Assembly (NCBI GenBank): GCA_030651285.1
Contig: JAUSCN010000012.1
Location: forward strand, 9,441-73,440
DNA from: a bacterium
GTDB lineage: Bacteria > Patescibacteriota > Minisyncoccia > Phycocordibacterales > Phycocordibacteraceae
Direction: 5' to 3'
Length of the DNA stretch: 64,000 nt
Shown: positions 6,411 through 42,951 of the stretch, piece after piece
Layout: each line of letters opens with the position of its first letter
Position numbering within the stretch: position 1 is the stretch's first letter
Made by a program: the position numbers and the translations under genes
Notes under the pieces: generated by a model
What the model was told of the DNA's origin: nothing
Database searches by the model: none
Seen by the model: only the letters and a program-made list of their open reading frames with translations

Positions 6411-6434
6411 GAGCTGCTACAATACAAATCACGT

Positions 6435-11778: not shown

Positions 11779-12071
11779 AGCGGCCCGTCTTGCCATCCTC
11801 ACCGCAACACGAGCAAGGCATTCTGGCCGATTCCAGTAACTCCTGAAGTTATTTTTTTATTGCAAGAAGAATCACCTGCGCCAAACTAATGAAGGTGCTC
11901 ATGAGTCCCGTCCAGAACGCGTAGACTTCAAGATTATTTCTCCAGCCTTTTTTCTTTACCATAGGGAAGAGGATAGCACGTGCCCCTCCCTCACTTCCCT
12001 TTCTATGTGCATTGCGATAGAAGGCTTTGCTCAAGAGCCGTTTTTGACTGTAATCCATTCCCATAAAAATG

Positions 12072-12845
12072 TTAACAAGAGACGTTTGCGGTCACTTGCT
12101 CGTATGCTTCGTCGACAGAATCGACAATGGTGTAGAGGGTCATGTCTTTTTCATCGATTGCACCACGACTCTTGTATAAGGTCTGCTCGATAAACGCATG
12201 GAGCGGTTCCCAATATGCTTTTCCAAAAAGAATGATTGGCACTTTGCGAATCTTCTTGGTCTGCACCAAGGTAACGATTTCAAAAAACTCATCCAGCGTT
12301 CCAAAACCTCCCGGGAAATAGACATATACCTCAGATGCGTACGTAAGCATCACTTTGCGCACAAAGAAATGATCGAAGCCGAACTTCTCGGTAAGGTACG
12401 GATTGTAGTGCTGTGCCTGCGGAAGATTGATATTAAGCCCGACAGAGGCACCACCAACTTCAAATGCCCCCTGATTTCCTGCCTGCATGATGCCAGAACT
12501 ACCGCCAGTCACGACAGCAAACCCTTTCTTAGCCAGTCGCTGTGCAAGCTCTCGAGCATTCTTATAGGTCTCGTCATCGATTGATACGCGTGCACTGCCA
12601 AAAAAGGTCACTGCAAGCCCGTAGCGGCGGATAATGTCGAATCCCTCGATGAATTCTGACATTATCTTGAAGACGCGCCACGATTCTATCTTTTGTGGCT
12701 TACAGACAAGGAGCGGATGCTCTTCTGGCATCGTGCGCTGACCTTCGTGAACCACTTTTGCAAGACGCTCGGCCGTCTTGTTGATCGACACATCGCGCGA
12801 GAGCAGGTCTGAGGACTGAGTAGCGCTAGTCGAATGTTCATTCAT
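12072..12845 (-). CDS. LOG family nucleotide phosphoribohydrolase (TIGR00730-like)
   Basis: VTFFGSAR, TGG..GIM.AGN, FFVRK, PGGFGTLDE. Confidence 0.93.
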   Translation of the reverse strand: MNEHSTSATQSSDLLSRDVSINKTAERLAKVVHEGQRTMPEEHPLLVCKPQKIESWRVFKIMSEFIEGFDIIRRYGLAVTFFGSARVSIDDETYKNARELAQRLAKKGFAVVTGGSSGIMQAGNQGAFEVGGASVGLNINLPQAQHYNPYLTEKFGFDHFFVRKVMLTYASEVYVYFPGGFGTLDEFFEIVTLVQTKKIRKVPIILFGKAYWEPLHAFIEQTLYKSRGAIDEKDMTLYTIVDSVDEAYEQVTANVSC

Positions 12846-12866
12846 GTTCTCAACTATGATACCAGA

Positions 12867-13229
12867 TTAAATTCCCGGGCAATTCGTTGCAGGAGAATAA
12901 CCGGCCCTTCGTGCCACATCGATAGACTCGAACCAGACTTTATTAGCATCTGAAATGCGCGTCGCACCTGAACACTGAGGGAGATAGTATTTCGTCCCAT
13001 TTCTTGAGGCAACCACCTTCCCTTCCCCAGGCGAAACTTCGGGGGAAATGTTCTCTGGACTGACTTCTACGAGCGAAAATTGGGTTGTTTGGGCTGTATC
13101 CCGGCCAGCCAGGTACCCGAGCCCGAAACTGAGGGAAGAAGCCAGTAAAAGGATAGTAATGATCAGCACATCCCGGGGTATACTGCCTATAAAGGCTTTG
13201 CATTTCTTATGGGATTCTGATATAGTCAT
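12867..13229 (-). CDS. Membrane-anchored protein with Ada metal-binding-like C-terminal domain
   Basis: TM helix then VASRNGTKYYLPQC...WF.S...A..AGY.P..NC. Confidence 0.7.
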   Translation of the reverse strand: MTISESHKKCKAFIGSIPRDVLIITILLLASSLSFGLGYLAGRDTAQTTQFSLVEVSPENISPEVSPGEGKVVASRNGTKYYLPQCSGATRISDANKVWFESIDVARRAGYSPATNCPGI

Positions 13230-13248
13230 CGTGTAAAACTATACCACC

Positions 13249-13521
13249 ATGGCATCAACAAAAGCAGGCGGCTCAGCGAAAAACCTCAATACTTCAAACC
13301 CGAAATACCTCGGAGTGAAGCTTGCTGATGGTGCTTCGGCTCGTCCAGGAATGGTCATCGTCCGCCAGCGCGGCACGAAGATCGAGGCAGGAAAGAACGT
13401 CGGCATCGGCCGCGATCACACCCTCTTCTCTCTCGCTACTGGTACCGTCTCGTACCGCACTCGCCGAAAGACGAGCTTCACGGGAAAGAATTTCGCGAAG
13501 AAAGTAGCAGACGTTATCTAA
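13249..13521 (+). CDS. rpmA: 50S ribosomal protein L27
   Basis: [27 protein letters not shown]. Confidence 0.96.
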
Positions 13522-13542
13522 CTCTAAGTTTTCAGTAGGAAC

Positions 13543-13580
13543 AAAAGAAAAACCGCGGCATAAACCGCGGTTTTTCTTTT
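13543..13580. terminator. Bidirectional intrinsic terminator between rpmA and rplI
   Basis: AAAAGAAAAACCGCGG-cataaa-CCGCGGTTTTTCTTTT. Confidence 0.85.
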
Positions 13581-13597
13581 AGTTTTTTTAGGAAAAA

Positions 13598-14041
13598 CTA
13601 TTCAGCCTCGATAGTGATTGAGAACTTTCCGAATGCTCCCGCGACAGCGACCGGCACTTCGAAGGTACCGCATTCTTTGAACGGCTTTTCAAGCTTGATG
13701 GCGTCGTCAGAAAGGTCGACATGTGCCTGCTCCTTTGCTGCCTGACGGATCTCATTTTCCCCTATTGCATCATAGAGATGATTCTTCTCATTTACCTTCG
13801 CCTTTATGACGATACGTGCCTCGACAAGAGCAGCGACATTCTGAGCGAGGAGCGCTGCGTCGAGCGCCGAACGGTCAACCACCTGCTTGCGGCGAAGTTC
13901 CGCCTCCTTCTGGGCCGTCGGGGTTGCCGAAACAGCAAAATGCTTCGGGATTAGGTAGTTCAGAGCATGACCATCGGCCATGTCGACCGTCTCATGCTTG
14001 CGCCCAATGCCCTTGATATCCTTCAACAAAATTACTTTCAT
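13598..14041 (-). CDS. rplI: 50S ribosomal protein L9
   Basis: MKVILLKDIKGIG...DGHALNYLIP. Confidence 0.95.
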   Translation of the reverse strand: MKVILLKDIKGIGRKHETVDMADGHALNYLIPKHFAVSATPTAQKEAELRRKQVVDRSALDAALLAQNVAALVEARIVIKAKVNEKNHLYDAIGENEIRQAAKEQAHVDLSDDAIKLEKPFKECGTFEVPVAVAGAFGKFSITIEAE

Positions 14042-14059
14042 GTGAACCAGCGTACATCA

Positions 14060-15316
14060 TCACTTGCCGGTAGTCAAAAAGTCTACCGCCCGCTTCATCT
14101 GCGGATCGCGCTTCGCCTCAGCATCAGCTGCCGTGAACGGCGCTGCGATATCCGGCGCGATACCGTTACCCATGATCCAGTGCCCTGCGGGAGTGACCCA
14201 GCGGGCAATAGTGACTTTGAGCGAGCCACCATCGAGATCGTAGAGGGTCTGCACTGATCCTTTTCCGAACGATTTCGTTCCAATCAGAGTTGCGACTTTT
14301 GCGTCTTGCAGAGCGCCGGCAAGAATTTCAGACGCTGAAGCGGAACCGCCATCAATAAGCACGACGACTTTCGCTCCTTGAGGAAGATCGTTATAGCCAT
14401 GACTCGAGTGCACCTGATTTGGTTCTTTGCCGCCGAAATCTTCCGTTACGACCACTGTACCTTTCGGAAGGAAATGACTTGCAATATCGACTGCTGCGTC
14501 GAGATATCCGCCCGGATTAGAACGCAGGTCGACAATGAGCTTTTTTGAGCCAGAAGCCTTGAATCGGGAGAACGCCTGACTGAAGAGACTCGCTGAATTC
14601 GAGGTGAATTCATACAGCGCAATGCTATAGACACCACTCTTTTCATCGAGAGAATCTTTAGTCTCAGGCACTTGGATCGTATCGCGCACGACTTTTATCT
14701 CGAATGGCGTGCCGCCATTGCGGATAATGGTGAACTCAACGGTCGTACCGATCTCGCCACGTATCTTCTTCACAGCTTTTTCAGTCGAAAGACCGTCGGT
14801 CGATTTTCCATCGATGGCGATGATTTGATCGCCTGCTCGTATGCCCGCAGCCTCTGCCGGAGTGCCTTTAAGAGGAGCTACGACGGTCAGCACACCCTCT
14901 TTCACACCGATCTCCATGCCGACACCGGCAAAACTTCCTGAAATATTTTCAGCGAACGATTTCGCCTCTTCTGGCGGGAAAAATACCGTATATGGATCGC
15001 CATATGAAGAAGCGAGGCCACTGATGGCACCATGCAACCGCTCTTTCACAGTAGGAAGCGTCGAAGATGCGTGTGTGCTTATGTAATTTTCATTAAGCGC
15101 GTTCCACGCCTTCCAGAAAACAACGAGATCAGCGCTCTGATCCGGCGTCGCATTAAGCCCATCACCGATGAACGGAACGCGCGACGCAATCGTCATGCCG
15201 GAGCTGCTCGTACCGACAGAAAGGCCTATGAAAAAGAAAAGTACGGCAATAAGCGCAGACGAAATACCGCGCGTCGCTACGCTAGTACCGGAGCGAGATA
15301 AGTCTTTAGATTCCAT
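14060..15316 (-). CDS. ctpA: Carboxyl-terminal processing protease (S41A, PDZ)
   Basis: GDPYT, PDZ (GTPAEAAGIRAGD), DLRSNPGG, SASASEI, SFGKGSVQ; start MESKD inferred. Confidence 0.9.
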   Translation of the reverse strand: MESKDLSRSGTSVATRGISSALIAVLFFFIGLSVGTSSSGMTIASRVPFIGDGLNATPDQSADLVVFWKAWNALNENYISTHASSTLPTVKERLHGAISGLASSYGDPYTVFFPPEEAKSFAENISGSFAGVGMEIGVKEGVLTVVAPLKGTPAEAAGIRAGDQIIAIDGKSTDGLSTEKAVKKIRGEIGTTVEFTIIRNGGTPFEIKVVRDTIQVPETKDSLDEKSGVYSIALYEFTSNSASLFSQAFSRFKASGSKKLIVDLRSNPGGYLDAAVDIASHFLPKGTVVVTEDFGGKEPNQVHSSHGYNDLPQGAKVVVLIDGGSASASEILAGALQDAKVATLIGTKSFGKGSVQTLYDLDGGSLKVTIARWVTPAGHWIMGNGIAPDIAAPFTAADAEAKRDPQMKRAVDFLTTGK

Positions 15317-15430
15317 TGTACGAAGTGTAACATGCGATGCTTCATCGCACTGTCGAGTGTGACGCCTCGACAGACAGTCGGTCAAGTGAGACACAATTAT
15401 GCACATGATCGCGTATGCTATTCTTTGCAT

Positions 15431-16351
15431 ATGATATTTCGCTACGAGTATCACGGCGGCGTCTGGATTGATCTTGAACAACCGACTGAAGAAGAATTGC
15501 GCGACATCACGCACGAATTCTCGATCAGCAGCCGCATCGAAAAAGAACTCGTCTCCCCGACCCCGACCCCGCTCGTCATAAGCGACCCTGACGCTACATT
15601 GCTCGTACTTCATTTCCCGACGCACGGGGCAGAAAAAGGCAAAATAGGAAGCCAGGAAATTGATATCGTCGTTGGCACCAAGTTCATCATCACCGTACGA
15701 TACGAAGTTATCGCACCGCTCTACCATCTGAAGAAGCAGCTTGAGACTCAGCAGCTTGTCGCCCCGCGCGCACTTATCACCGCTGAAGTATTGTTCGAAA
15801 TACTCTTCGTGCACCTCTACACCTCAGTGCACGACCAGATCAATCACACAGCCGACCACCTTACGCGCATCGAGCAGGACATGTTCGACAATCATGAGCG
15901 TATGACCGTGCGTTCGATTTCAAACATCATCCGGGAATTCCTACACATGGAAGCTACTCTGGCCAACCAGGAAGAACCTCTCAGTCGCTATATGGACGTG
16001 CTCTCGCGACACAAGTTCTTCAAAGCATCTTTCTCAGAGCGTGCCGATCATATTCTCGCGGAGCGCTCGCAAGCCTCCCGCCTCATCGAGACTCACCGCG
16101 CCGTCGCAACTGAACTCCGCGAAACGAACATGGCGCTCCTGGAAGTGCGCCAGAATGAGATCATAAAAGCGCTCACGCTGATCACGGTCATCGTGCTGCC
16201 GCTCGAACTCATCGCCGTCATCTTCGGTATACACGCCCCTGGCACCCCTATAGAAGGCGACCCAAATGCATTCTGGATCATCATGGGCATCATGTTCTCC
16301 ACCGTAGGACTCATGACGATATATTTCGCGCGAAAGCGTTGGATCTCGTAA
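15431..16351 (+). CDS. CorA family divalent cation transporter
   Basis: WIDLEQPT N-terminus, QNEIIKALT before two C-terminal TMs; GMN motif appears as GIH. Confidence 0.85.
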   Translation: MIFRYEYHGGVWIDLEQPTEEELRDITHEFSISSRIEKELVSPTPTPLVISDPDATLLVLHFPTHGAEKGKIGSQEIDIVVGTKFIITVRYEVIAPLYHLKKQLETQQLVAPRALITAEVLFEILFVHLYTSVHDQINHTADHLTRIEQDMFDNHERMTVRSISNIIREFLHMEATLANQEEPLSRYMDVLSRHKFFKASFSERADHILAERSQASRLIETHRAVATELRETNMALLEVRQNEIIKALTLITVIVLPLELIAVIFGIHAPGTPIEGDPNAFWIIMGIMFSTVGLMTIYFARKRWIS

Positions 16352-16378
16352 TATACTCAAACAACATCCTTATATCGC

Positions 16379-17839
16379 ATGAACTGGCTCGCTCGTATTT
16401 TCAAGAAAAGCACCGATACCACACCGGCCCGCGTGCCACAGATATTTTTCACTAATACCCTTTCCGGCACTAAGGAAGTGTTCGTATCCCTGAAGCCGGG
16501 TATGGCACTCCTCTACTCGTGCGGACCGACCGTCTACAGCAAAGTACACATCGGTAACTTGCGCGCATACATATTTTCAGACACAATCGCGCGCACACTT
16601 TCTGCTGCAGGATATCGCGTCCGTCGCGTCATGAACATCACAGATGTCGGCCACCTCGTCGGCGACGCCGATGGCGGAGAAGACAAAATGGCGGTCGGTG
16701 CCGCGCGAGAGCACACAACCCCCGAGTCGATCGCGGAGCGCTACACGAAACTCTTCATCGGAGATTTGGGAGATCTCAATGTCGATACCGACGACATCAC
16801 CTTCCCGCGTGCCACCGACTACATCAAAGAACAGATCGCGCTCGCAAAGACACTTGAAGAAAAAGGATTCGCCTATCAGCTTGCAGATGGGCTTTATTTC
16901 GATACTCACAAGTTCCCGAACTACGGAAAACTGGGCGGTCTTTCACAAGCCAATCTCGAGGCTGGAGCACGTGTAGAACTCGTCAGAGGCAAGCGCAATC
17001 CGACCGATTTCGTGCTCTGGAGAGCTGCGAAGCCGCATGACCTGCAGCAATGGGATAGTCCCTGGGGCCGCGGTAATCCTGGTTGGCACATCGAGTGCTC
17101 CGCGATGTCTCGCGCTCTTCTCGGACAGGAAATAGACATTCACACGGGCGGTGAAGATCTCGCACAGATACATCACAATAATGAGATCGCTCAGTCAGAA
17201 GCGGCAAGCAACCGGACATTCGTACGGTACTGGATGCACAATGCCTTCCTCACCATGAACGGCGAAAAAGCATCCAAGTCGCTAGGAAACGTAGTCTATC
17301 TTTCAGACATCATCGAGAAAGGATTTAACCCCCTCTCGCTGCGCTACTTCTTCCTTCAGGCGCACTACCGCACACCGCTTTCCTTCTCCTGGGATGCACT
17401 CGCAGGCGCCGCAAGCGCACTCGAGCGTCTCTGGAAGCTATCAGAGGAGATCGCTGACGAGTCTGGACGAGCGAGTGCACCTTCCGAGGCTCGCGATCGC
17501 TTCCTCGCCTTGATGCGCGATGACCTGTCCACCCCACAAGCGCTCGGCACCATCTGGGAGTCGCTTAAAAGCGAGGAATACACACCCGCAGAAAAATGGG
17601 GCCTCCTTGAAGCTGCCGATGCTCACTTCGGCCTTCTTCTGGTTAATCCGCCGACTCCTAAGGCTCTGACGGAAAAAGATTTACCTGAGGCGATACGGAA
17701 AATGCTTGCAGAACGCATTGCAGCCCGTACCAGCCGCAACTTCAAAGAAGCCGACCGTATCCGGACTGATATCGAAGCCGCGGGGTACTGCATCGAAGAC
17801 GGGCCGGGGGGAGCCATATTAACTAAGACCCCTCTTTGA
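16379..17839 (+). CDS. cysS: Cysteine--tRNA ligase
   Basis: YSCGPTVY..HIGN, PGWHIECSAM, DIHTGGED, KASKS. Confidence 0.97.
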   Translation: MNWLARIFKKSTDTTPARVPQIFFTNTLSGTKEVFVSLKPGMALLYSCGPTVYSKVHIGNLRAYIFSDTIARTLSAAGYRVRRVMNITDVGHLVGDADGGEDKMAVGAAREHTTPESIAERYTKLFIGDLGDLNVDTDDITFPRATDYIKEQIALAKTLEEKGFAYQLADGLYFDTHKFPNYGKLGGLSQANLEAGARVELVRGKRNPTDFVLWRAAKPHDLQQWDSPWGRGNPGWHIECSAMSRALLGQEIDIHTGGEDLAQIHHNNEIAQSEAASNRTFVRYWMHNAFLTMNGEKASKSLGNVVYLSDIIEKGFNPLSLRYFFLQAHYRTPLSFSWDALAGAASALERLWKLSEEIADESGRASAPSEARDRFLALMRDDLSTPQALGTIWESLKSEEYTPAEKWGLLEAADAHFGLLLVNPPTPKALTEKDLPEAIRKMLAERIAARTSRNFKEADRIRTDIEAAGYCIEDGPGGAILTKTPL

Positions 17840-17853
17840 TATACTGAGCGGCA

Positions 17854-19209
17854 ATGGCCGTCGACCGAGTTCCCCCTCAATCCCTTGAATCAGAACGCGC
17901 CCTTCTTGGCGCCCTACTCCTAAAGCCTGACGCCATCCACGACGTCTCGGACCTGATCCGCTCAGATTCGTACTACGCAGAGAAACACCGCATCATATTC
18001 AGCGCAATGCGCGAGCTTTCCGAGCGCGGGGAGCCAATAGACCAACTCTCCCTCTCCGAACGCCTACAGGGCCAGGGACTTCTTGAACGCAGTGGTGGCC
18101 GCAGCTATCTCGCCGAGCTCGCCGACTCAGCCCCAGCTCCAGGCAATTTCGCCCACTATGCAGAACTCGTATCACGCAAATTCTTGATGCGTTCGCTCAT
18201 CGACGCTGCGCATGGCATCTCTGAATCTGCCTATGACGACTCGCGCGAGACCATGGAAGTGCTCGACGAAGCCGAGAAAAGCATCTATGCGATCGGCAAC
18301 GCATCTGCCGCGCACAAATTCACCGCGATCGGCGATAAAGTGCACGAGGCATGGGACCGCATCGAGGCACTCTCGAAAAAAGAAGACGGTATTCGTGGCG
18401 TTCCTTCCGGCTTCCCCGCTCTCGACAACCTCCTCTCCGGATTTCACCCTTCTGACCTCGTAATCCTTGCGGCACGTCCATCGATGGGTAAGACCTCGCT
18501 TGCGCTCGACATCGCCAGGAACGCCGCAGTGCGCCACAATGTTCCAGTCGGTATCTTCTCGCTCGAAATGAGCTCTGAGCAACTCATCGACCGCATGCTT
18601 GCGGCGGAATCATTCGTCAACTCATGGAAACTGCGCACTGGCCAAGTCCGAGATGAAGAGGATTTCAATCGTATCCGTGATGCTCTTGAAACACTCTCGA
18701 AGGCTCCGATTTTCATCGATGATAAACCGGGCAATAATATTCTCGCCATGCGCGCAGTCGCGCGCCGCCTGAAGCGTGAACGCGGCATCGGGCTTATCGT
18801 TGTGGACTATCTTCAGCTCATGACACCAACTTCGACTAAGGCCTCTGATTCCATGGTTCAGCAAGTGACTGAAATATCCCGCTCTCTCAAGTCTCTTGCT
18901 CGCGAACTCAGTGTGCCAGTGATCGCCCTTTCGCAGCTCTCGCGTGCCGTCGAGCAGCGCGGGGGCAAACCTCGCCTGAGCGACCTTCGCGACTCCGGAA
19001 GTATCGAGCAAGATGCCGACGTCGTGATGTTTATTCACCGCGAAGACAAAAAGAATCCAGACAGCGACCGACACCACATCGCCGAAATCATCATCGAAAA
19101 ACACCGCAACGGCCCGACCGGTACCGCAGAACTCTTCTTCGACGAGAAGCGCGCCTCCTTCCAGCCGCTCGATACTTCCGGTTATGGCGAGCTCGCTACG
19201 GAATTTTAG
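17854..19209 (+). CDS. dnaB: Replicative DNA helicase
   Basis: AARPSMGKT, FSLEMS, VVDYLQLM, SQLSR, LRDSGSIEQDAD. Confidence 0.98.
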   Translation: MAVDRVPPQSLESERALLGALLLKPDAIHDVSDLIRSDSYYAEKHRIIFSAMRELSERGEPIDQLSLSERLQGQGLLERSGGRSYLAELADSAPAPGNFAHYAELVSRKFLMRSLIDAAHGISESAYDDSRETMEVLDEAEKSIYAIGNASAAHKFTAIGDKVHEAWDRIEALSKKEDGIRGVPSGFPALDNLLSGFHPSDLVILAARPSMGKTSLALDIARNAAVRHNVPVGIFSLEMSSEQLIDRMLAAESFVNSWKLRTGQVRDEEDFNRIRDALETLSKAPIFIDDKPGNNILAMRAVARRLKRERGIGLIVVDYLQLMTPTSTKASDSMVQQVTEISRSLKSLARELSVPVIALSQLSRAVEQRGGKPRLSDLRDSGSIEQDADVVMFIHREDKKNPDSDRHHIAEIIIEKHRNGPTGTAELFFDEKRASFQPLDTSGYGELATEF

Positions 19210-19221
19210 CCTTGCACTACA

Positions 19222-19824
19222 ATGGATCGGATCGACGAACTTGCTCACGCCCTCGCTCGCCTTCCCGGCATCGGTCCACGCCAGAGCAAGCGCTTCGTGT
19301 TTTATCTCCTCTCTGCCCCTGCAACCGAGCGAGCAAAGCTCGCAGAGCTCATAACCGCTCTTGGCAAAGATGTACACCAGTGCCCTAAATGCTTACGCTT
19401 TTTTAATGGTGCCTCAGCAAACATCTGCAACTACTGTTCAGATACTCGCCGCGATGACTCGCTCCTGATGCTTGTCGAAAAAGACCAAGACTTAGCGGCA
19501 GTCGAACGTGCTGGCACGTATCGCGGCCGATATTTCGTACTGGGCGGCGTTCTCACCCTCACTGGTAAGGGCTCAATTCGCGGGAAGGAATTGGTACGTA
19601 CAGTGGAAGAACGCCTCAAAGAAAGCCTCAAGGAGGTCGTGCTGGCTCTTTCTGCAACGAGTGAGGGTGAACACACGGCAGATCACATTCGCGAACTGCT
19701 CATGCCCTATCGCGATCATTTAAAGATATCAGCGCTCGGTCGCGGCCTCGCAACTGGTAGCGAGCTTGAATACTCTGACGCAGAAACTCTCCGCGCAGCT
19801 CTCATAAATCGCACCGAGGCATAG
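19222..19824 (+). CDS. recR: Recombination mediator RecR
   Basis: LPGIGPR HhH, C4 zinc finger, YFVLGG, TSEGEHT, ELEYSD. Confidence 0.95.
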   Translation: MDRIDELAHALARLPGIGPRQSKRFVFYLLSAPATERAKLAELITALGKDVHQCPKCLRFFNGASANICNYCSDTRRDDSLLMLVEKDQDLAAVERAGTYRGRYFVLGGVLTLTGKGSIRGKELVRTVEERLKESLKEVVLALSATSEGEHTADHIRELLMPYRDHLKISALGRGLATGSELEYSDAETLRAALINRTEA

Positions 19825-19844
19825 GATTTGGTAGAATACACGGT

Positions 19845-20231
19845 ATGGTAAAAAAGATCGTTTACTTTTTCGATAAACTAGAAGACAAAGTCCGCATCAC
19901 TCTGAGCCATCGCCCGATTCTCTACGCCATTGTCGGCGGTATCGGCATCATCCTTTTCTGGAAGGGTGTGTGGGAAATAGCAGAGGTCTTCCCTATCTTG
20001 CACGGCCTGGGCTCAGTCGTTCTTGGTGTATTCATCCTCCTCATGACCGGCCTGCTTGTATCCTTTTTTATCGGCGACAGCATCATTCTTTCTGGATATA
20101 ATCGCGAGAAAAAACTTGCAGAGAAAACCGAGATGGAGGTTCGCGAAGAAAGAAACACCGATGAATGTATCATTGAACACCTCGAGGCGATTGAGAAAAA
20201 ATTGGACGCTCAAGAAAAAGATAAACGATAG
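19845..20231 (+). CDS. Conserved membrane hypothetical protein
   Basis: Two TM helices (GIILFWKGVW), charged C-tail; TAGAAT upstream. Confidence 0.75.
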   Translation: MVKKIVYFFDKLEDKVRITLSHRPILYAIVGGIGIILFWKGVWEIAEVFPILHGLGSVVLGVFILLMTGLLVSFFIGDSIILSGYNREKKLAEKTEMEVREERNTDECIIEHLEAIEKKLDAQEKDKR

Positions 20232-20233
20232 GT

Positions 20234-20269
20234 ATACAAAAAGCACCTCCGTAGAGGTGCTTTTTGTAT
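20234..20269. terminator. Bidirectional intrinsic terminator
   Basis: ATACAAAAAGCACCTC-cgta-GAGGTGCTTTTTGTAT between convergent genes. Confidence 0.85.
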
Positions 20270-20281
20270 TGTAAGAAACGA

Positions 20282-21652
20282 TTATCTCTCCTGAACAAAG
20301 GTCAGCGCGCGACCCTTGAGCGAAGCACGGCCGGTGCGGCCGATGCGGTGCACGTAGTCCTCGTAGGTCGACGGCAAGTCATAGTTGATGACGTGCGAGA
20401 CTGCGGGAATATCGAGACCGCGAGCAGCAACGTCAGTGGCCACAAGCACGCTCACCCTGCCCGCCTTGAAGGCCTCGAGGGCGCGTATGCGCGCTCCGTG
20501 TGACTTGTTGCCATGGATGCTCTCCGAATGGATACGCATGTGAGAAAGGGCCTTTGCAAGCTTCTCGACACCGAACTTCGTGCGTCCGAAGACGAGCACG
20601 CGACTGAACTCACGGTCCTTGAGGAGCTCCGTAAGCACGTCAAACTTCTCCTTTCCGCGCGGGATGCGGACGACGTCCTGATCGATGTTCTTGGAAGTTT
20701 CGCGAGTTCTTACCGAGATGATAGTTGGGCTCGAGAGAAATTCGCCGATGAGACGCTCGATCTCCTTCGACATCGTCGCCGAGAAGAAGAGTGTGTGACG
20801 CTCCTTGTTCATCTTCGCGAGGATCAAGCGCATGTCGTCGATGAAGCCCATGTCGAGCATGCGGTCCGCCTCGTCGAGAACGACTGTACCGAAACTTGAG
20901 AGATCAAGTGAACGGCGCTCCATAAGATCCTTCAAGCGCCCCGGAGTACCGATGACGAATGCCGGATTATGACGGAGCTGTGAGACCTGGGGGCCGATGT
21001 TTGCACCTCCCACAGCGACCATACCGCGAAATCCGAGACCCTTTGCAAATCCTGCGAGCTCTTTTTCGATCTGTACCGCGAGCTCACGCGTCGGCGCCAT
21101 GATGAGAATACGATCACCCTTCTGCTTCATGACCTTGTCGATGAGGGGGATGAGGAAGGCAGCCGTCTTTCCTGTACCAGTCTCAGCGAGACCGACGACG
21201 TCCTGCCCGAGAAGTACGTGCGGAATGGCTTTGTCTTGAATCGGAGTCGGGAGCTCATAACCTCGCCCTTCGATATTCTTCTTCAAATGCGCATTGATAT
21301 CGAAATCTGCGAACTTGTGCTCAGGGACGAAGACCGGCTCTTCAGTCGTGACTACCGCCCTGTTCATGAATTTTGAAATTTCAGCCTCTGTTTCGCCGAA
21401 GGAGCCGAAGCCACCACGTCGACGCGCCGGCGCGCGCCCCCCGCCACGGCCACCAGAAAATCCTCCACTAAAGCCACCCCTACCCTCTGAGCGACGCGGG
21501 CCACCGAAGCCTCCGCCGCGCTGTGGTGGACGCGATGAATATGAGCGCTCGCTGCTGCCGCCGCGAGAGTCTCTAGAGAAGCCTGAAGAACGCTCGCTTC
21601 TCTGCGAGCCATGTGCTGATGATGATTGATGATTCCAACGCCCTACCTGCAT
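20282..21652 (-). CDS. DEAD-box RNA helicase with N-terminal Gly/Arg/Ser-rich extension
   Basis: Q motif PTPIQ, AETGTGKT, PTRELA, DEAD, SAT, HRIGRTGR. Confidence 0.95.
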   Translation of the reverse strand: MQVGRWNHQSSSAHGSQRSERSSGFSRDSRGGSSERSYSSRPPQRGGGFGGPRRSEGRGGFSGGFSGGRGGGRAPARRRGGFGSFGETEAEISKFMNRAVVTTEEPVFVPEHKFADFDINAHLKKNIEGRGYELPTPIQDKAIPHVLLGQDVVGLAETGTGKTAAFLIPLIDKVMKQKGDRILIMAPTRELAVQIEKELAGFAKGLGFRGMVAVGGANIGPQVSQLRHNPAFVIGTPGRLKDLMERRSLDLSSFGTVVLDEADRMLDMGFIDDMRLILAKMNKERHTLFFSATMSKEIERLIGEFLSSPTIISVRTRETSKNIDQDVVRIPRGKEKFDVLTELLKDREFSRVLVFGRTKFGVEKLAKALSHMRIHSESIHGNKSHGARIRALEAFKAGRVSVLVATDVAARGLDIPAVSHVINYDLPSTYEDYVHRIGRTGRASLKGRALTFVQER

Positions 21653-25181: not shown

Positions 25182-25451
25182 TTGGTTAAAGAAGACCCTA
25201 AGTTTTCAGAGATCGACGTTGCTGAGGGCTGGCTTTTTTCAAAAAGGAAACACCATTTTCCTATCGACAAGCCGACCCTGAAAAAGAGAGCCGAAATGGC
25301 TCTCAAAAGACAGCACGATTGCCCCACGCTCTCCTTTCAGGAAATCATGCGGATCGTTCTGTCTGACATTGACTTCTCTGAACGCAGAGCTTATGCCTCC
25401 GGCATTGGCAAAATGTTCAGCATTCGAAATCACCAACACGTTCCGGCCTAG
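25182..25451 (+). CDS. Hypothetical protein
   Basis: 89-aa ORF with AGGAGGT SD before a TTG start. Confidence 0.55.
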   Translation: MVKEDPKFSEIDVAEGWLFSKRKHHFPIDKPTLKKRAEMALKRQHDCPTLSFQEIMRIVLSDIDFSERRAYASGIGKMFSIRNHQHVPA

Positions 25452-25535
25452 CACTTACGAGTGGACTGCTTACCAGCCCACTCGTATCATTTCTATCTTT
25501 CCTCCACTCCTTTTTTCTGTTATAAAACAAAGGAC

Positions 25536-25610
25536 GGCCTCATCGTCTAACGGTTAGGACACAAGCTTCTCAAGCTTGGAATCGGGGTTCGATTCCCCGT
25601 GAGGTCACCA
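25536..25610 (+). tRNA. tRNA-Glu(CTC)
   Basis: Acceptor GGCCTCA/TGAGGTC, anticodon arm CAAGC-TTCTCAA-GCTTG, T-arm CGGGG-TTCGATT-CCCCG, encoded CCA. Confidence 0.97.
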
Positions 25611-25630
25611 GTCAATTTCTCTAGTCTTGA

Positions 25631-25660
25631 CAACAAACGGCTCGGTTGAGCCGTTTGTTG
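25631..25660 (+). terminator. Hairpin downstream of tRNA-Glu; a homologous hairpin is at 26348-26375
   Basis: CAACAAACGGCTC-ggtt-GAGCCGTTTGTTG. Confidence 0.75.
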
Positions 25661-25722
25661 TGTTCAGCCCTACGGGGACTCGAACTCATTTCTATTTTTG
25701 ATGCTTTTGCTACTATTGGCAC

Positions 25723-26160
25723 ATGGAAATCAAATCGAGAATTTTAGAAGTTTTGCAGAGCGGACATCTCATGAGTCTTGCCACTTCAGATGAAAATGGT
25801 TTGTGGGTGTCGGATGTAGTTTATATTTTCGACGAAGACCTAAATATCTATTGGATGTCTGATCCGGATGTTCACCACTCAAAATCAATTGTAAAGAATG
25901 GGCAAGCCGCAGGCACTATAACCATCAGCAACAAAAGCAAAGGGTCTAATCTCGGGATTCAGTTTTCTGGAATAGCCAGCAAGATAGACGGACCGAGATA
26001 TGATTTGGCAAAAAAGCATTTGAAGAAAAGGAGTCATCCTGAACCGAAAGAGGAGGATGACGTATTGAAGGGGGATTCCTGGTACGTTCTAAAACCAAAT
26101 AAAATTGATCTTATCGATGAGGCACAATGGGGTTACGACAAGAAGAGTTTAAGTTTATAA
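25723..26160 (+). CDS. Pyridoxamine 5'-phosphate oxidase-like (split-barrel FMN-binding) protein
   Basis: MSLATS, YWMSD..HHSK, AGTI, GIQFSG pattern. Confidence 0.8.
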   Translation: MEIKSRILEVLQSGHLMSLATSDENGLWVSDVVYIFDEDLNIYWMSDPDVHHSKSIVKNGQAAGTITISNKSKGSNLGIQFSGIASKIDGPRYDLAKKHLKKRSHPEPKEEDDVLKGDSWYVLKPNKIDLIDEAQWGYDKKSLSL

Positions 26161-26195
26161 AGGTTCGTACGCCAAAGGCGTGAAGGGACCCCTAA

Positions 26196-26312
26196 CTATG
26201 CTGCACGCTTTTGGTCTTTGACGACTGGTATACTTTCCTCTACGTCAACGCTCATGAAAATATCCAGTATCTGCCTTATGCGAGTTCGAGGTTTATCCCG
26301 ATAAGGATCACA
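26196..26312. repeat. 117-bp att-like repeat, copy 1
   Basis: About 20 mismatches to copy 2 by hand count; shared core CGTCAACGCTCATGAAAATATCCAGTATCTG. Confidence 0.92.
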
Positions 26313-26407
26313 ACTGAACTGTGGGGTTAATTTCCCTGTCTTGACACGAAAAATGGCTCAACGGAGCCATTTTTCTTTTAGAATCTTTCCGTAAATAACG
26401 ATGACCC

Positions 26408-26632
26408 TTAAGGGGACTCGAACTCGATCATTGTTTTTAATTCTTCGAGAATTTCCTTTGCGTGTTTTGTATCTTCCCTAGCGAGACGTTTCGAAATTCC
26501 TACAACGATTATCGCGAACTCTCGCAGATTCTCACGCGCAGCTTCTCGTTCCGCCTCAGTCGCATTCGGCATGTAGCGATCGAGGATAAGGTCACCCGGA
26601 CGATGATTCGAGGGATTCGGTTTGTGGTCCAC
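26408..26632 (-). CDS. Small hypothetical protein
   Basis: 74-aa ORF (RPGDLILDRYMPNATEAEREAAREN); its end EFESP* is written in a tRNA T-arm-like sequence. Confidence 0.55.
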   Translation of the reverse strand: MDHKPNPSNHRPGDLILDRYMPNATEAEREAARENLREFAIIVVGISKRLAREDTKHAKEILEELKTMIEFESP

Positions 26633-26716
26633 AGAGATATGACCGCTTGGTTATGAACGGTCAGTCCGATGATCCTCCACTCAACCGAATAGATACCGAT
26701 AAAGTATACTGGGGCG

Positions 26717-27166
26717 ATGATTGATTGCGTTTACTGTAATTCACCCGAGATAAAAGGCAGAACTATTTTTCGGAACGATCTTGCATGGGCATTCCCGACA
26801 AATATGCCAATTACTCCTGGGCACATCCTTATATCACCTGTTCGCCACGTCAGAACATTTGAGGAACTAACGGATGATGAACGAGATGCCCTATTCACAC
26901 TCACCATTAAAATGAAAATCGCACTGAAGACTCTCTTCGGTGCAGAAGGATTCCATCACGCATGGAACGAGAGCGAGGTAGGCGGCCAATCGGTTCCTCA
27001 TTTTCATCTTCATATTGTGCCAAGGAAGAATGGAGATGCGGGAATTACGGAATATGAGCCGAGAAAGTTCCTCTACCGGCCAGGATCACGGGAATCCACT
27101 CCGGAGGATGAATTGAGAGTAGTTGCGGAACAAATCAAAGACAAATATCTAGAATCTGAGTCCTAG
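26717..27166 (+). CDS. HIT family nucleotide hydrolase
   Basis: CVYC, PITPGHILI, GQSVPHFHLHIVPR (HxHxH). Confidence 0.93.
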   Translation: MIDCVYCNSPEIKGRTIFRNDLAWAFPTNMPITPGHILISPVRHVRTFEELTDDERDALFTLTIKMKIALKTLFGAEGFHHAWNESEVGGQSVPHFHLHIVPRKNGDAGITEYEPRKFLYRPGSRESTPEDELRVVAEQIKDKYLESES

Positions 27167-27200
27167 GGATATTTGAACATTCAGCAGAAGTTTCCATTTA

Positions 27201-27317
27201 CTATGCCGCGTACTTCAGTTCTGTCACGACCGGTAAAATTTCCTCCGCGTCAACGCTCATGAAAATATCCAGTATCTGTCTCACGCGAGTTCGAGGTCTA
27301 TCCCGATGAGGGTCACA
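27201..27317. repeat. 117-bp att-like repeat, copy 2
   Basis: Ends GAGTTCGAGGTCTATCCCGATGAGGGTCACA versus tRNA GGGTTCGATTCCCCGTGAGGTCACCA. Confidence 0.92.
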
Positions 27318-27393
27318 TGTCAAGACGTGAGAACGTGCCAAATAGGCAACATTTCAAGCGTAACGCCTCAGATAAGTAGAGGTGTTTAGCTGT

Positions 27394-28257
27394 ATGAAAG
27401 CCCTTATCTCGAAACTAGAAAAGAACTCATATGTCAGATCTATAGCCCTGCTTGCCTTAGTCCTTGGAGCTTTCATAACGATCGGCACCTTTGTACGAGG
27501 AATCGGAGGCTATTTAAGCGAGGACGTTTTTGTATCAAGAAATATATCCAAACAACTTGAACATCTCTCAGCCGGACAAAGTATTGATTACTTCAAGAAG
27601 TATTTGGGCCCACAAATTCTTCAACGAGAGGTTGGCGCGAAAATGTCTGAGAGCGTCTTCTACTACAAAGGAGCGTACATCCAGGCTTTGGTGGACAAGA
27701 GCAACAATGAGGCGGTTTATTGGGCTGTTACCTATTGCGAGCCTCTTGTACTCAACCGCCCAGTTTTTTCAATGGGAAGATATGTTGCCGCCAAGGATGT
27801 TTTGAAACCAGGTGCGGGCACAACCATACTTGCGCCAAGACTGATTTTGAACAAGTCAACTTTCACTGATTTCTTGAAAGACGAGAGGGGTGAATTGCAT
27901 GAATTTATCTCAGGAGCAACGGCCAATTCTTATGCATATGAAGCCGTGTACTTGGGCAATCCTAGTGCATATCAAACTCTCCTCGTTGGCGTCAATGACA
28001 TTTGCCCATCATCATCAGATCTAGACGACCATTTAGATGCTGATCCGATGTGGTTAGAGTCAGGGGAAAAGCCAACCGAAGATGCCATCAAAAGATTTAG
28101 GGAGGGGGTGCGAATAAATACATATGGGGAAACGGCGCCCTTCATGGGGGAGGAGGTGGTTAAGCTATTAAATGCTGTTCACTCCGACAAATTGGAAGAG
28201 CCCTATTTAAATTTTGGGGTTGATAGGATTAGAGTTCGTTACTTCCCTGACCGATAG
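27394..28257 (+). CDS. Membrane-anchored hypothetical protein (ETEC_3214-like)
   Basis: N-terminal TM; LSAGQSIDYF..LGP, YIQALVD, YLGNPSAYQ resemble the ETEC_3214 domain (from memory). Confidence 0.65.
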   Translation: MKALISKLEKNSYVRSIALLALVLGAFITIGTFVRGIGGYLSEDVFVSRNISKQLEHLSAGQSIDYFKKYLGPQILQREVGAKMSESVFYYKGAYIQALVDKSNNEAVYWAVTYCEPLVLNRPVFSMGRYVAAKDVLKPGAGTTILAPRLILNKSTFTDFLKDERGELHEFISGATANSYAYEAVYLGNPSAYQTLLVGVNDICPSSSDLDDHLDADPMWLESGEKPTEDAIKRFREGVRINTYGETAPFMGEEVVKLLNAVHSDKLEEPYLNFGVDRIRVRYFPDR

Positions 28258-28301
28258 ACCTTAGGGACGTTGTTCAGACTCCCGTTTCTCAACTTATATA
28301 C

Positions 28302-28562
28302 CTAGCTGCTCTGAATAGAGCCTATTTTCTTCTGCCCCCTTTCCCAAGTTTTTCGAGAAAGATAGCGCGCAAACCAAACAGCAAAGATGAGAGCGGCAAT
28401 TGCCCCTACTGATGAAATATCTTCGTTTTCTAGCCCCAGATGACTAAATACAAGAATGGCTATAACAGCAGTTCGGATGATTAACCACGAGACAAGTAGA
28501 GCCATGAGGCATTGCCACCATGAATTTCTAAAAGTCATCTTGAATTCATTTTGTGTTTCCAT
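28302..28562 (-). CDS. Small two-TM membrane protein
   Basis: 86-aa ORF, two hydrophobic helices, flanked by 23-bp direct repeats. Confidence 0.6.
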   Translation of the reverse strand: METQNEFKMTFRNSWWQCLMALLVSWLIIRTAVIAILVFSHLGLENEDISSVGAIAALIFAVWFARYLSRKTWERGQKKIGSIQSS

Positions 28563-28710
28563 ATTCAGAAACTATAGCATCCGCCTGCCTGGGGACTTGG
28601 GGATATTAGGGACGTTGCTCGGACTCCCATTCCCTTTTCACCTTCTTCACATACCGCTTCAGGTTGTATTCCTCTATCTTCTTCCAGCCCGCGTTTGGTT
28701 TTTTCTTTGG

Positions 28711-28827
28711 TATGAAATCTTCTTCGTCATCTGTCACGGTGGGAGATTTTTCCTCCTGGTCAACGCTAGTGAAAATATCTAGTATCTGCTTGATACGAGT
28801 TCGAGGTTCATCTCGGTGCTGGTCACA
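28711..28827. repeat. att-like repeat, copy 3 (more diverged; its minus-strand frame runs on to 28606)
   Basis: GTCAACGCTAGTGAAAATATCTAGTATCTG...CGAGTTCGAGGT...GGTCACA. Confidence 0.88.
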
Positions 28828-28831
28828 ATGC

Positions 28832-28865
28832 AAAGCGTAGGCCGCCGAAAGGCGGCTTTTGCGTT
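28832..28865. terminator. Intrinsic terminator after the last repeat
   Basis: GCCGCC-gaaa-GGCGGC-TTTT. Confidence 0.75.
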
Positions 28866-28877
28866 GTAACCTCGGAA

Positions 28878-29504
28878 CTATGTTTTTCTTTCGAGCAAAA
28901 CTATGAGTGGAGAGCAGGCAGAAAAATATTTACTACGATCTCTCCCGATAAGGACAATGAGCTGTTCCAGTAATTCACGCACATCCTTCTGGTCGCCGAT
29001 CTTGTCTCGCTTATGAGCGACCAAGGCATCGTGCTCAATAGAAAACTCCTTCCAGGTATGCCCGCCCTGAATATAGTTAATAATCATCGGAATAAACTTA
29101 TCAACCGCATTCACGAAACGAGCTTCAGGATCGCTTCGTTTTTCATACGTTTCGATCGTCTCGTGTAAATCCGTGAATTCAGGGAATTCGCCAGCGATCC
29201 GAACACGAGCATTCTTTTCCCTGTCCTTTTTTGTTTTCAATCCCTCCTGATCAAATATGTAGGTGTCTCCGGCATATGCTTCATGCAGGTCATGTGCAAG
29301 AGCATACTGAAGCACTTTCTCTTTAGAATATTCTAATCGCAACGTATCACAGAGATACCAGCAAAGCATGGCAAGAAAATATGAGTGCTCTACATCATTT
29401 TCTCGGCGCGAAAGATCTCCCGTATGAGCCACCCTCTCAACTGACTGGAAGGTGTGCAGCAATCGCACGAAGGCCGCAGCTCGTTCCGCATCGGGAATCA
29501 TCAT
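28878..29504 (-). CDS. HD-domain phosphohydrolase (HDDC2/YfbR-like)
   Basis: RRENDVEHS, ALAHDLHEAYAGD, EARFV.AVDK. Confidence 0.9.
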   Translation of the reverse strand: MMIPDAERAAAFVRLLHTFQSVERVAHTGDLSRRENDVEHSYFLAMLCWYLCDTLRLEYSKEKVLQYALAHDLHEAYAGDTYIFDQEGLKTKKDREKNARVRIAGEFPEFTDLHETIETYEKRSDPEARFVNAVDKFIPMIINYIQGGHTWKEFSIEHDALVAHKRDKIGDQKDVRELLEQLIVLIGRDRSKYFSACSPLIVLLERKT

Positions 29505-29543
29505 AAGGCGAAGTATACTCTCACACTTTACTGCGTAAAGAAC

Positions 29544-29597
29544 GCACAGTAATAATGCAAAACCGCCCCTTATGGCGGTTTTGCATTATTACTGTGC
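29544..29597. repeat. Perfect 24-bp inverted repeat (long terminator-like hairpin)
   Basis: GCACAGTAATAATGCAAAACCGCC-ccttat-GGCGGTTTTGCATTATTACTGTGC. Confidence 0.9.
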
Positions 29598-29608
29598 ACT
29601 TGGAAATA

Positions 29609-30070
29609 CTATTCAACAATCAGGTTCCCCCTCTGGCCGAGTTGGCGATGATTGTATTTGCTGCAGTAGTACTCGAACGTTCCTGCCTTATCTGCCACGA
29701 ACTCTACAGTCACCGGCTGATTGAGTGGAGTGTCTTTCCTGATGCCAAACTCATCGAGAGTGAAGTCGTGTGTGCCTGCGGTATTAGTAATAGTGATTTT
29801 TACCGTGTCACCCTTTTTCACCTTCATTTCGCTCAAAGAAAAATGAGGCGACATCTTCCCGTCTGCGGTCTTATCCATCCACGAGGTCATCATGAACTCT
29901 TTTATGCCAGCAGTCGTGGTGGCAGTATTCTGAACATCTGAATTTGGAACAGTGGCCGTAACATCTGCTTTCGGCACACCACTATTTCCGCGATCTGCAC
30001 CATAAAACGCATAGCCCCCGAGTAACGTGAGCACGATCAATATTGGAAGGATAATTTTCATATGTTGCAT
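29609..30070 (-). CDS. Membrane-anchored cupredoxin domain protein
   Basis: VKKGDTV, THDF, FVADKAGTFEYYCSKYNHRQLGQ. Confidence 0.85.
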   Translation of the reverse strand: MQHMKIILPILIVLTLLGGYAFYGADRGNSGVPKADVTATVPNSDVQNTATTTAGIKEFMMTSWMDKTADGKMSPHFSLSEMKVKKGDTVKITITNTAGTHDFTLDEFGIRKDTPLNQPVTVEFVADKAGTFEYYCSKYNHRQLGQRGNLIVE

Positions 30071-42112: not shown

Positions 42113-42951
42113 GGTGAGGTTGAAGTTGCTGAAGACTTACCCAGAAGCCCCACGCCCGTGTCGCGCAACATGACCCACGTAACTGAGAAAAGATTTACCG
42201 CAGGTATAATACGGAGCACGACCTCAGGAGCTGCAGGATCATCATCGATGCGCGTAACGCTCCCGATGGGAAGCGCTCCCGGGCCCGGGACATACACGAC
42301 ATCGCCTACTGCGACGTTTGCAGAGCGCGCAAGAGTCGCGCTCATCGCACCGCCACCCGCACCTTCGATGGTAAGCGGCACATGAGCGTACCCGACCCAA
42401 CCATGGGTCACCATGCCTGGCGCTGAAAAAAGCGTGACTCGAGAATACTCGGGCAAGACTGAAGAGATGGCACCAATAGGTACGCCCCCCGCACCAAATA
42501 CTTCCATCCCAACCGTGACACCTGCATCAATTCCTTCAGAGAGTACGAGCGTGTCATAAGGACTTTCAGGCGGACGAACGATAACGCTCGCAAGAATTCC
42601 GCTGACAGCAGTCTTCCCCGATGTCGTAGAACTCAGGAGAGCCGAGAGACTGGAGACCTTCACGAGGAGCGCACGATTTTCACTCGCAAGGGCGGCATTT
42701 TCACTCGCAAGCAGCTCATTCTTAGAGGAGAGAGTTGCGGCGTCGCCAAAACTGGAGACGAACCCATGACCAGCGGCAGCAACAGAATCGGCCCCGCGAT
42801 AGAGCGGAGCGAATAGATTCCAGAAAAAATTTGGCGCGAAGAACCGTACAAGAAAGACGATAAGTACGAACATGAGCGCAGCAACGCCCCACGAGAAACT
42901 CTCGGGCGAAAATATCGCGTTACTACGCCTCGTTAAGTATGTCCTCTTCAT
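42109..42951 (-). CDS. mreC: Rod shape-determining protein MreC
   Basis: TM, coiled coil (LASENAALASEN), beta-rich domain; follows mreB. Confidence 0.88.
   Translation of the reverse strand: MKRTYLTRRSNAIFSPESFSWGVAALMFVLIVFLVRFFAPNFFWNLFAPLYRGADSVAAAGHGFVSSFGDAATLSSKNELLASENAALASENRALLVKVSSLSALLSSTTSGKTAVSGILASVIVRPPESPYDTLVLSEGIDAGVTVGMEVFGAGGVPIGAISSVLPEYSRVTLFSAPGMVTHGWVGYAHVPLTIEGAGGGAMSATLARSANVAVGDVVYVPGPGALPIGSVTRIDDDPAAPEVVLRIIPAVNLFSVTWVMLRDTGVGLLGKSSATSTSP

Follow-up and report, generated by a model that had tools for sequence, protein, structure and literature searches.

Repeats that delimit small recombinase-free units beside a tRNA-Glu gene of a Patescibacteriota genome resemble displaced tails of large serine recombinases

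How do three short stretches of unrelated genes come to stand in a row behind a tRNA gene, each closed by a copy of the same repeat? The question is raised by a 64,000-nucleotide stretch of a Phycocordibacteraceae genome (phylum Patescibacteriota; assembly GCA_030651285.1, contig JAUSCN010000012.1, positions 9,441 to 73,440), which we call the window. The genome holding it, G000, has an assembly of 855,539 bp that is 96.7% complete. Three direct repeats, at 26196-26312, 27201-27317 and 28711-28827, follow tRNA-Glu(ctc) and divide 3.2 kb into three units. An initial annotation, made from the sequence alone, had explained the repeats as C-terminal tails displaced from an integrase that has its attachment (att) site inside its own gene. 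Our comparisons support this proposal and place the tail in a family of large serine recombinases (LSRs). Below, G, L and P labels denote comparison genomes of the genus, contig loci and fetched LSR homologues, and C denotes a contig.

The relationship between the repeat and LSR genes is visible on a metagenome contig, L048, which carries two repeat copies: one is an orphan and the other closes a 175-aa open frame, itself truncated where the contig begins. This frame has 19 longer homologues, mostly of 513 aa, and in 17 of them both PF00239 (Resolvase) and PF07508 (Recombinase) are found; most have a Zn-ribbon as well. The peptide had been predicted at the C-terminus or far end of serine-recombinase elements, and 11 of the 12 LSR homologues that were fetched do terminate in it (full-length proteins of 513-550 aa). 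One of these homologues, P0007 (550 aa), ends in the long tail form that is present in repeat 3. In P0015 (495 aa), the sequence diverges at the C-D codons and the final 18 codons are antisense to tRNA-Glu. In G473 and G484, both from the genus of the window, LSR copies truncated at the N-terminus run into tRNA-Glu(ttc) and tRNA-Glu(ctc). A G/C-x-P-x-R...R-T pattern can be seen by eye in most LSR tails, of which a regular expression caught 22 of 76. An AlphaFold2 model of P0005 has the usual LSR parts and a long coiled coil; its tail is modelled as a loop and then a helix of moderate confidence, with the last 14 residues disordered.

We examined LSR loci in species-representative genomes, taking the best 80 of 516 relatives. 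In four of the 80, all from Patescibacteria-type genomes, the LSR reads about 60 nt or more into an oppositely oriented tRNA gene, which is tRNA-Glu(ttc) in two cases and tRNA-Arg(gcg) or tRNA-Lys(ttt) in the others. The integrated LSR body adjoins the tRNA and continues into about 20 tRNA-antisense codons, and homology to the tail begins exactly where integrated copies change over to tRNA antisense. Because full-length relatives end in the tail and integrated ones run into tRNA antisense, comparison places the attP crossover inside the gene for the recombinase, at the G/C-D-P codons, which precede the stop by about 38 codons (by 73 in the long form). Integration thereby carries the last 38-75 codons of the LSR to the far end of the element. 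In line with this geometry, L129 is a complete element: an orphan tail beside rpsT, 7.85 kb of cargo, and then an LSR that runs into tRNA-Arg. By the same comparison, the repeats that end the elements derive from the attP of the LSR.

The site also has a recognizable anatomy. The word GTGAC, antisense of the tRNA acceptor end, is common to fused, orphan and tRNA-joined copies, and since the copies diverge on both its sides, strand exchange probably takes place there. The stretch of the LSR gene at attP imitates the antisense of the tRNA acceptor and T arm. Each repeat had been described as ending in a degenerate tRNA 3' end, and this holds: the repeat end keeps the GTGAC and TCGAAC words of the tRNA antisense strand, with 6 extra nt between them. 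Counted from the first base of GTGAC, the P arms (the tail-bearing arms of the site) have the start of TCGAAC at +22 and the tRNA has it at +16; Glu, Lys and Arg cases are alike in this, and the 6-nt offset preserves the reading frame. Rutherford et al. 2013 (PMC3783163) describe, for serine integrases, a motif bound by the zinc-ribbon domain (ZD) whose distance from the centre is 5 bp less in attB than in attP. The likeness of the 6-nt shift of TCGAAC to this published 5-bp shift is suggestive, by analogy. Several of the statements on half-site similarity in this text come from comparison by hand.

Within the window, the repeats lie where the initial annotation had put them, with its hand count for copies 1 and 2 reproduced: BLASTN against the whole genome aligned these two at 83.05% identity across 118 nt with zero gaps (E 6e-30). 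Repeat 3 aligned at 80% across 80 nt and at 76.5% across 98 nt (E 1e-14), and no copy beyond the three was found in the full 855,539 bp. Similarity between the repeats is far above chance. A repeat search within the window returned one 3-copy family (26215-26323, 27220-27328 and 28730-28838; 81% and 74% identical to the copy used as reference) and an additional 131-nt pair (26182-26312 and 27187-27317, 80% identity). On the minus strand every one of the three copies retains a single open frame, and the translations agree with the peptides read earlier, as does the lack of a convincing start. Repeat 1 has an in-frame stop 15 codons upstream with no ATG, GTG or TTG in between, and the sole in-frame start candidates of repeats 2 and 3 are TTG codons within adjoining DNA. 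A protein search with the 75-aa open reading frame (ORF) of the repeat matched the window's own product alone.

The units themselves encode no LSR domains; the relatives that bear the same tail do. Pfam and NCBIfam scans of 10 ORFs at 25182-30070 matched no recombinase family, which agrees with the earlier description of the units as integrase-free, and the ORFs of the three units matched no integrase, replication or packaging family. The same scans found the cargo of the three units to be mutually unrelated and upheld the gene names first given to it (PNPOx-like, HIT, ETEC_3214 and a membrane ORF). The PNPOx-like assignment comes from PF01243 at E 3.9e-5 and 24.5 bits, below the gathering threshold of 28.1, and from NCBIfam YhbP at 1.2e-13, also under the curated cutoff. 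The G+C content of the array is 42-47%, versus 50-54% in the flanking core genes.

Related genomes show what the locus looks like without an array. The 44 nt that follow repeat 3 (28828-28871, containing a terminator hairpin) match the DNA directly 3' of tRNA-Glu(ctc) in G005 and G027. In G005:C12 and G014:C8, the same upstream genes and tRNA are found, and since this type of trailer follows the tRNA at once, we take these to be empty sites at tRNA-Glu(ctc). The reverse is seen at tRNA-Glu(ttc), which is empty in G000 (C17) and filled in G014:C17. By these comparisons, the 3.2-kb array is an insertion after tRNA-Glu. An encoded CCA is missing from empty sites, and elements with a left arm of the type that holds a 74-aa gene (below) supply the CCA of the tRNA; the last bases of the window's tRNA-Glu(ctc), including its encoded CCA, thus seem to derive from the inserted element.

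The variable DNA may be wider than the array. A perfect 24-bp inverted repeat at 29544-29597 resembles the trailer hairpin of tRNA-Glu, and an HD_3 gene (28878-29504) sits between the two hairpins. This gene was not found at the corresponding loci of G005, G014:C8, G565 and G527:C1, so the variable region may extend past repeat 3. At the filled tRNA-Glu(ttc) site of G014:C17 (L011), a 230-aa ORF with weak helix-turn-helix matches lies at 5994-6686, between the unit and tRNA-Val(gac); it may be an insertion too, because G000 has just 131 nt there.

We next consider how the repeat is distributed. Among the 222 genomes of the genus, with profile matches for the repeat peptide kept at E <= 4e-4, the tail profile matches five, G000 among them. 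The initial annotation had predicted hits clustered at tRNA-Glu with variable cargo, and such clustering is seen in genus genomes and metagenome loci alike. In the genus the matches sit at four tRNA genes, namely tRNA-Glu(ctc), tRNA-Glu(ttc), tRNA-Lys(ttt) and tRNA-Arg(gcg), and the cargo differs each time. G565 has one unit at the syntenic tRNA-Glu(ctc), with cargo different from that of the window; its long repeat is 98.3% identical to window repeat 3 over 230 nt, versus 70-85% for the flanking genes. One unit is present at tRNA-Glu(ttc) in G014, with a DUF4258/DUF2283 pair as cargo, one at tRNA-Lys(ttt) in G533, and two in G527, at tRNA-Glu(ctc) and tRNA-Arg(gcg). Each repeat closes with ~30 nt that look like the accompanying tRNA's 3' end. 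A scan of metagenome contigs gave nine loci, and four of them reach a tRNA-Glu 0.9-2.2 kb away with no recombinase in between. At L056 the contig stops short of the tRNA, and tRNA-Val(gac) stands on the flank side, as it does at the tRNA-Glu(ttc) locus; the remaining four contigs stop before the tRNA position. On this distribution the repeat is rare and tRNA-linked, and it appears to be mobile.

The other end of the units is recurrent too. The units lack the 1.5-kb LSR body and retain both arms of the site. Units 1 and 2 each combine a P arm with a recurrent left arm, P', which consists of a hairpin followed by a 74-aa partner gene or its relic; both the tRNA and repeat 1 are followed by ~60-95 nt of mutually homologous DNA, which comprises the hairpin and the end of this small ORF. 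In such units the order is the 74-aa gene, a two-way terminator hairpin, ~25-45 nt and then the crossover word. A long form of P' is found in unit 2, G014 and L048. A short form is found in unit 1 and in L049, which match at ~53/55 nt (hand count) despite standing at different tRNA-Glu genes (L049 is at tRNA-Glu(ttc)). Unit 1 retains just the last ~11 codons of the 74-aa gene. We considered whether its short P' arm is a crippling deletion and rejected this, as in L049 this very arm adjoins a 74-aa gene that is intact. A second lineage, marked by the long tail, is represented by unit 3. Its left end opens with the start of an ORF that is whole in G565 and L053, where it begins at the end of the tRNA, and reduced to a short relic here.

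The 74-aa family provides a further tie to LSRs. In a profile search, it was found directly upstream of the LSR and on the same strand in at least 49 of the 80 LSR loci. No similarity links the 74-aa ORF to the C-terminal region of the LSR, so it is not an LSR fragment. The protein has no Pfam or NCBIfam match, and none of its 48 homologues is named beyond 'hypothetical protein'; its AlphaFold2 model (predicted local distance difference test score, pLDDT, 88) consists of one short and one long helix. The first description had called the units minimal cassettes. They do lack a recombinase, but the word is too strong in that unit 2 keeps this LSR partner gene and unit 1 its relic. Directly upstream of the 74-aa gene, at ~26636-26665, lies a palindrome that in G014 is a 14-bp perfect inverted repeat abutting the start codon; it is possibly an operator.

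We then asked which recombinase could act on these arms. G000 encodes two tyrosine recombinases (PF00589, on contigs C11 and C22, outside the window) and two LSRs. One LSR, at 53534-55330 of the window, has 578 aa, lies on the minus strand and overlaps the end of tRNA-Asn(gtt) by 13 nt; a T-arm-like palindrome ~60 nt past this tRNA falls within the tail region of the gene. The other, on C16 at 42303-43927 (L047), has 537 aa and extends 63 nt into the oppositely oriented tRNA-Ala(tgc), its last 20 codons being tRNA antisense. This gene seems to have the same split-gene geometry within G000. Its displaced orphan tail was not found, and tail hidden Markov models (HMMs) give no further orphan tails in G000. 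The initial annotation had compared the array to the LSR at tRNA-Asn; the parallel holds in outline, that LSR being only a distant relative with a 13-nt overlap, and the C16 gene at tRNA-Ala is the closer one. Both LSRs of G000 are distant from the tail family (best match to P0005 at E 3.8e-12, with 24% identity over 141 aa of the C-terminal region). In viral contigs, the Glu-type tail was not found and the LSR family has just two fair relatives (49% and 41%), so nothing points to a phage as helper. An LSR query matches 139 of the 222 genus genomes at E <= 1e-5, often in several places and often at contig ends, and the genus seems to have LSR elements as its chief mobile elements.

Att arms of an LSR on both sides and no LSR inside give the units the structure of non-autonomous elements, and arms that are shared while the cargo is exchangeable are the mark of such elements. 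Our preferred explanation, which we hold to be probable, is that the repeats are the P arms of small elements of the LSR family and that the units are recombinase-less derivatives inserted serially by a cognate LSR acting in trans. Each unit would have been inserted singly, either at tRNA-Glu itself or at the hybrid site that its predecessor had created, where a P arm that imitates the tRNA may act as target for the next; the cognate LSR would be supplied from elsewhere, and the cargo between the arms would be replaceable. Alternatively, homologous recombination between the repeats may add units. Movement in trans would be the most economical account of the same arms at different tRNA genes. 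Because a cognate LSR is now absent from G000, the array would at present be stranded.

Several observations weigh against trans insertion, or against parts of it. No cognate LSR was found in the 96.7%-complete assembly of G000; G014 and G565 have weak LSR matches only, and G533 is not among the matches listed. The P' arms of recombinase-less units are not clearly like the LSR's own P' sequence when compared by hand. Units of this type have an LSR as direct neighbour on one contig only, L048, where the 5' end is cut off. Among close orphan tails, changes at codon positions 1, 2 and 3 number 16, 9 and 25, a modest third-position bias (p 0.02). Finally, serine integrases recombine attP with attB only (PMC3783163), and because this is their normal pairing, stacking is a mechanistic problem: insertion at an occupied site would need the hybrid site as a target.

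The foremost alternative is that three complete LSR islands integrated serially and each lost its recombinase in place, so that no unit ever moved without a recombinase of its own. Such decay does occur, as the N-terminally truncated LSR genes at tRNA-Glu in G473 and G484 attest; the units retain the LSR partner gene, as a deletion derivative would, and the absence of a helper LSR from G000 fits as well. The left arms, however, are not LSR remnants but two recurrent, near-identical hairpin arms found across tRNAs, genomes and cargo. Independent deletions would not yield such shared arms and are unlikely for that reason, and all four metagenome loci that reach a tRNA are 0.9-2.2 kb long and recombinase-free. 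We regard loss in place as improbable, though it deserves to be kept in mind.

A much weaker case can be made for local tandem duplication, or for independent functional genes of 38-75 aa outside any mobile element. The frame is open in every copy seen, and proteins of 44-105 aa are sometimes called on such copies. Set against this, repeat 1 is startless and the other two repeats have start candidates only in adjacent, unrelated DNA; recombinases of 513-550 aa end in a stretch collinear with the peptide; and the units carry unrelated cargo while copies of the repeat occur at four different tRNA genes. We consider this very unlikely. A structured RNA or tRNA-like regulatory element, to which the resemblance of the repeat end to a tRNA 3' half might point, is hardly credible, given that there is no Rfam match even at E up to 1, that the three copies fold no more stably than shuffles on both strands (z -1.36 to +1.53), and that conservation tracks the protein frame across distant copies.

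Two further kinds of element were tried and set aside. Hairpins near the unit ends prompted us to consider a Y1/IS200-type element or one resembling a miniature inverted-repeat transposable element, which was dropped as the tail matches LSR genes. An integron was rejected since no IntI stands next to the array and no attC hairpin site is present; the earlier label 'integron-like' thus survives as an analogy only. The features of the array are collected in Table 1.

Table 1. Features of the tRNA-Glu(ctc) array in window coordinates; tail and arm assignments are predictions from comparison with LSR genes and related loci
Feature	Position	Strand	Basis or remark
tRNA-Glu(ctc)	25536-25610	+	ARAGORN; Rfam tRNA 62 bits; 3' end is the predicted attachment site (B arm + core)
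Left arm (P') of unit 1, short variant	25611-25667	.	Two-way terminator hairpin ~25633-25658; ~53/55 nt match to L049
Relic, last ~11 codons + stop of 74-aa partner gene	25668-25702	-	Repeat 25668-25687 vs 26406-26425, 90%; alignment
Unit 1 cargo, PNPOx_N/YhbP-like, 145 aa	25723-26160	+	PF01243, NCBIfam YhbP
Repeat 1, orphan LSR tail (38 codons + stop), right arm (P) of unit 1	26196-26312	-	Tail HMM E 7.8e-22
Left arm (P') of unit 2, long variant	26313-26407	.	Hairpin ~26349-26374; homologous to G014 and L048 arms
74-aa gene, unit 2	26408-26632	-	Family adjoins LSR genes upstream elsewhere
Unit 2 cargo, HIT-family protein, 149 aa	26717-27166	+	PF01230, 2e-21
Repeat 2, orphan LSR tail (38 codons + stop), right arm (P) of unit 2	27201-27317	-	Tail HMM 3.4e-23
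Left end of unit 3, second type; start of short relic ORF	27318-27381	+	ORF common to G565 and L053
Unit 3 cargo, ETEC_3214-domain protein, 291 aa	27382-28257	+	NCBIfam NF043066, 1.5e-19
26-bp copy of long-tail end	28261-28286	-	88% repeat with 28606-28631
86-aa predicted membrane protein	28302-28562	-	ORF; weak Pfam membrane-family matches, all below curated cutoffs
Repeat 3, long LSR tail (73 codons + stop), right arm (P) of unit 3	28606-28827	-	98.3% over 230 nt to G565; same long tail in P0007
Original tRNA-Glu trailer (B' arm + terminator hairpin)	28828-28871	.	Matches G005 and G027

Unit 3 has an inner structure of its own. The 88% direct repeat formed by 28261-28286 and 28606-28631, which represents the last codons and stop of the long LSR tail, flanks the 86-aa membrane gene. 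G565 has the same bracketed layout with an unrelated 66-aa membrane ORF inside, and the membrane gene of the window may be a nested insert or cassette.

Orphan tails are also seen far from the genus. Outside the Patescibacteria-type group, nine loci have an intact LSR with one or two same-strand orphan tails 1-8 kb downstream. At one locus, L092, the intact LSR is followed at 11432-21505 by a perfect tandem duplication of a 5,037-bp tail-delimited block, with no tRNA within 10 kb. Each copy of the block begins with the LSR tail and contains a second tail-like repeat at 72% identity. The duplication could be a real multimer or an assembly artefact.

A broader reading extends to the LSR family as found in many phyla. 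On it, the intragenic attP would be a built-in switch by which the state of integration sets the activity or direction of the recombinase, and a cassette system driven by a serine recombinase would arise. The free or tandem form would make the full enzyme, tail and helix included, and the integrated form would have a tail encoded by the tRNA. Orphan tails in the chromosome would serve as landing pads and spare tails. A resident or visiting LSR, followed by tail-delimited units of single genes, would reassort the accessory genes of very small genomes and, on the hint given by L092, those of larger ones as well. Taken as a whole, with all its parts joined, we hold this reading to be tentative and rather doubtful.

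Known kinds of element that the array calls to mind are LSR integration, integrase genes split at attP (SSV-type), tandem integrase-less att-flanked elements and arrays beside tRNA genes. The serine integrases of phiC31, Bxb1 and A118 resemble the relatives of the window tail in their Resolvase, Recombinase and Zn-ribbon domains and in the long coiled coil of the AlphaFold2 model, and they too use short sites. The greater distance of a motif from the centre in attP as against attB may be a further likeness (by 6 nt in the arms here, by 5 bp in PMC3783163). Here, in contrast, the crossover would fall within the coding sequence of the recombinase, the C-terminal tail would be exchanged, the target is a tRNA 3' end and many units are recombinase-less. 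In the main text of Durrant et al. 2022 (PMC10083194), 'tRNA' occurs 0 times.

The predicted geometry, with the att site within the integrase gene, a tRNA target and a gene split on integration, is shared with archaeal integrases of the SSV1 type. These are tyrosine recombinases of archaeal viruses whose attP lies inside the gene, which integration splits. The phrase 'within the integrase gene' occurs in the available text of a review (PMC8371274). Unlike the SSV1 type, the recombinase here is bacterial and of the serine family, and only its last 38-75 codons would be displaced. Cis-mobilizable elements (CIMEs) and the tandem accretion of ICESt3-type elements involve att-flanked, integrase-less elements in tandem, thought to be moved in trans by tyrosine integrases. 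The units are alike in being att-flanked, integrase-less and in tandem at one site; they differ in being just 0.7-2.2 kb long with one or two genes, and in depending on a serine recombinase, with rules of directionality under which accretion is less obvious.

The tycheposons of Prochlorococcus, 27 of 937 of which use a large serine recombinase (bioRxiv 10.1101/2020.12.28.424599), also occur in a streamlined genome, side by side at tRNA genes with partial tRNA copies between them, and with degenerate remnants and small cargo. They are defined with an integrase and often have replication genes, and the available text of that preprint mentions no intragenic attP or displaced tail. The units of the window lack the integrase and the hallmark replication or packaging genes that define a tycheposon, and the layout of the array alone is alike. 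Integron cassettes likewise form arrays of short units of one to a few genes with a repeated site, to which the intact recombinase and tail-delimited units of L092 add a further likeness; unlike in integrons, PF00589 matches here lie outside the window only, and the repeats are direct, appear to be derived from coding sequence and fold no better than shuffles. In the accounts available of integration-dependent immunity in mycobacteriophages, attP lies in a repressor gene and integration by a tyrosine integrase alters the C-terminus of the product. There too an element gene is cut at attP, whereas the gene cut here would be that of the recombinase itself. In titles and abstracts, we found no serine recombinase with attP in its own gene, no tRNA-antisense tails and no Patescibacteria mini-units, although supplementary tables may hold cases; a search for the phrase 'truncated upon integration' also found nothing.

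Displaced LSR tails would account for a class of small ORFs without starts, and of odd repeats, that adjoin tRNA genes; orphan tails mark the boundaries of past insertions and can serve to map them. For tRNA ends as targets, the sites would also provide attP/attB pairs ready-made by nature. If integration does make the serine recombinase sever its own gene, this would be a simple way to couple the form of the enzyme to its integration state. If recombinase-less units of 0.7-2.2 kb do move, they would be among the smallest integrative elements that carry cargo, and they would offer a route for the gain and loss of single genes (HIT, PNPOx-like, toxin-antitoxin and MazG-like) in genomes of less than 1 Mb with few other mobile elements. 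The array in this way suggests how very small bacterial genomes may swap single genes.

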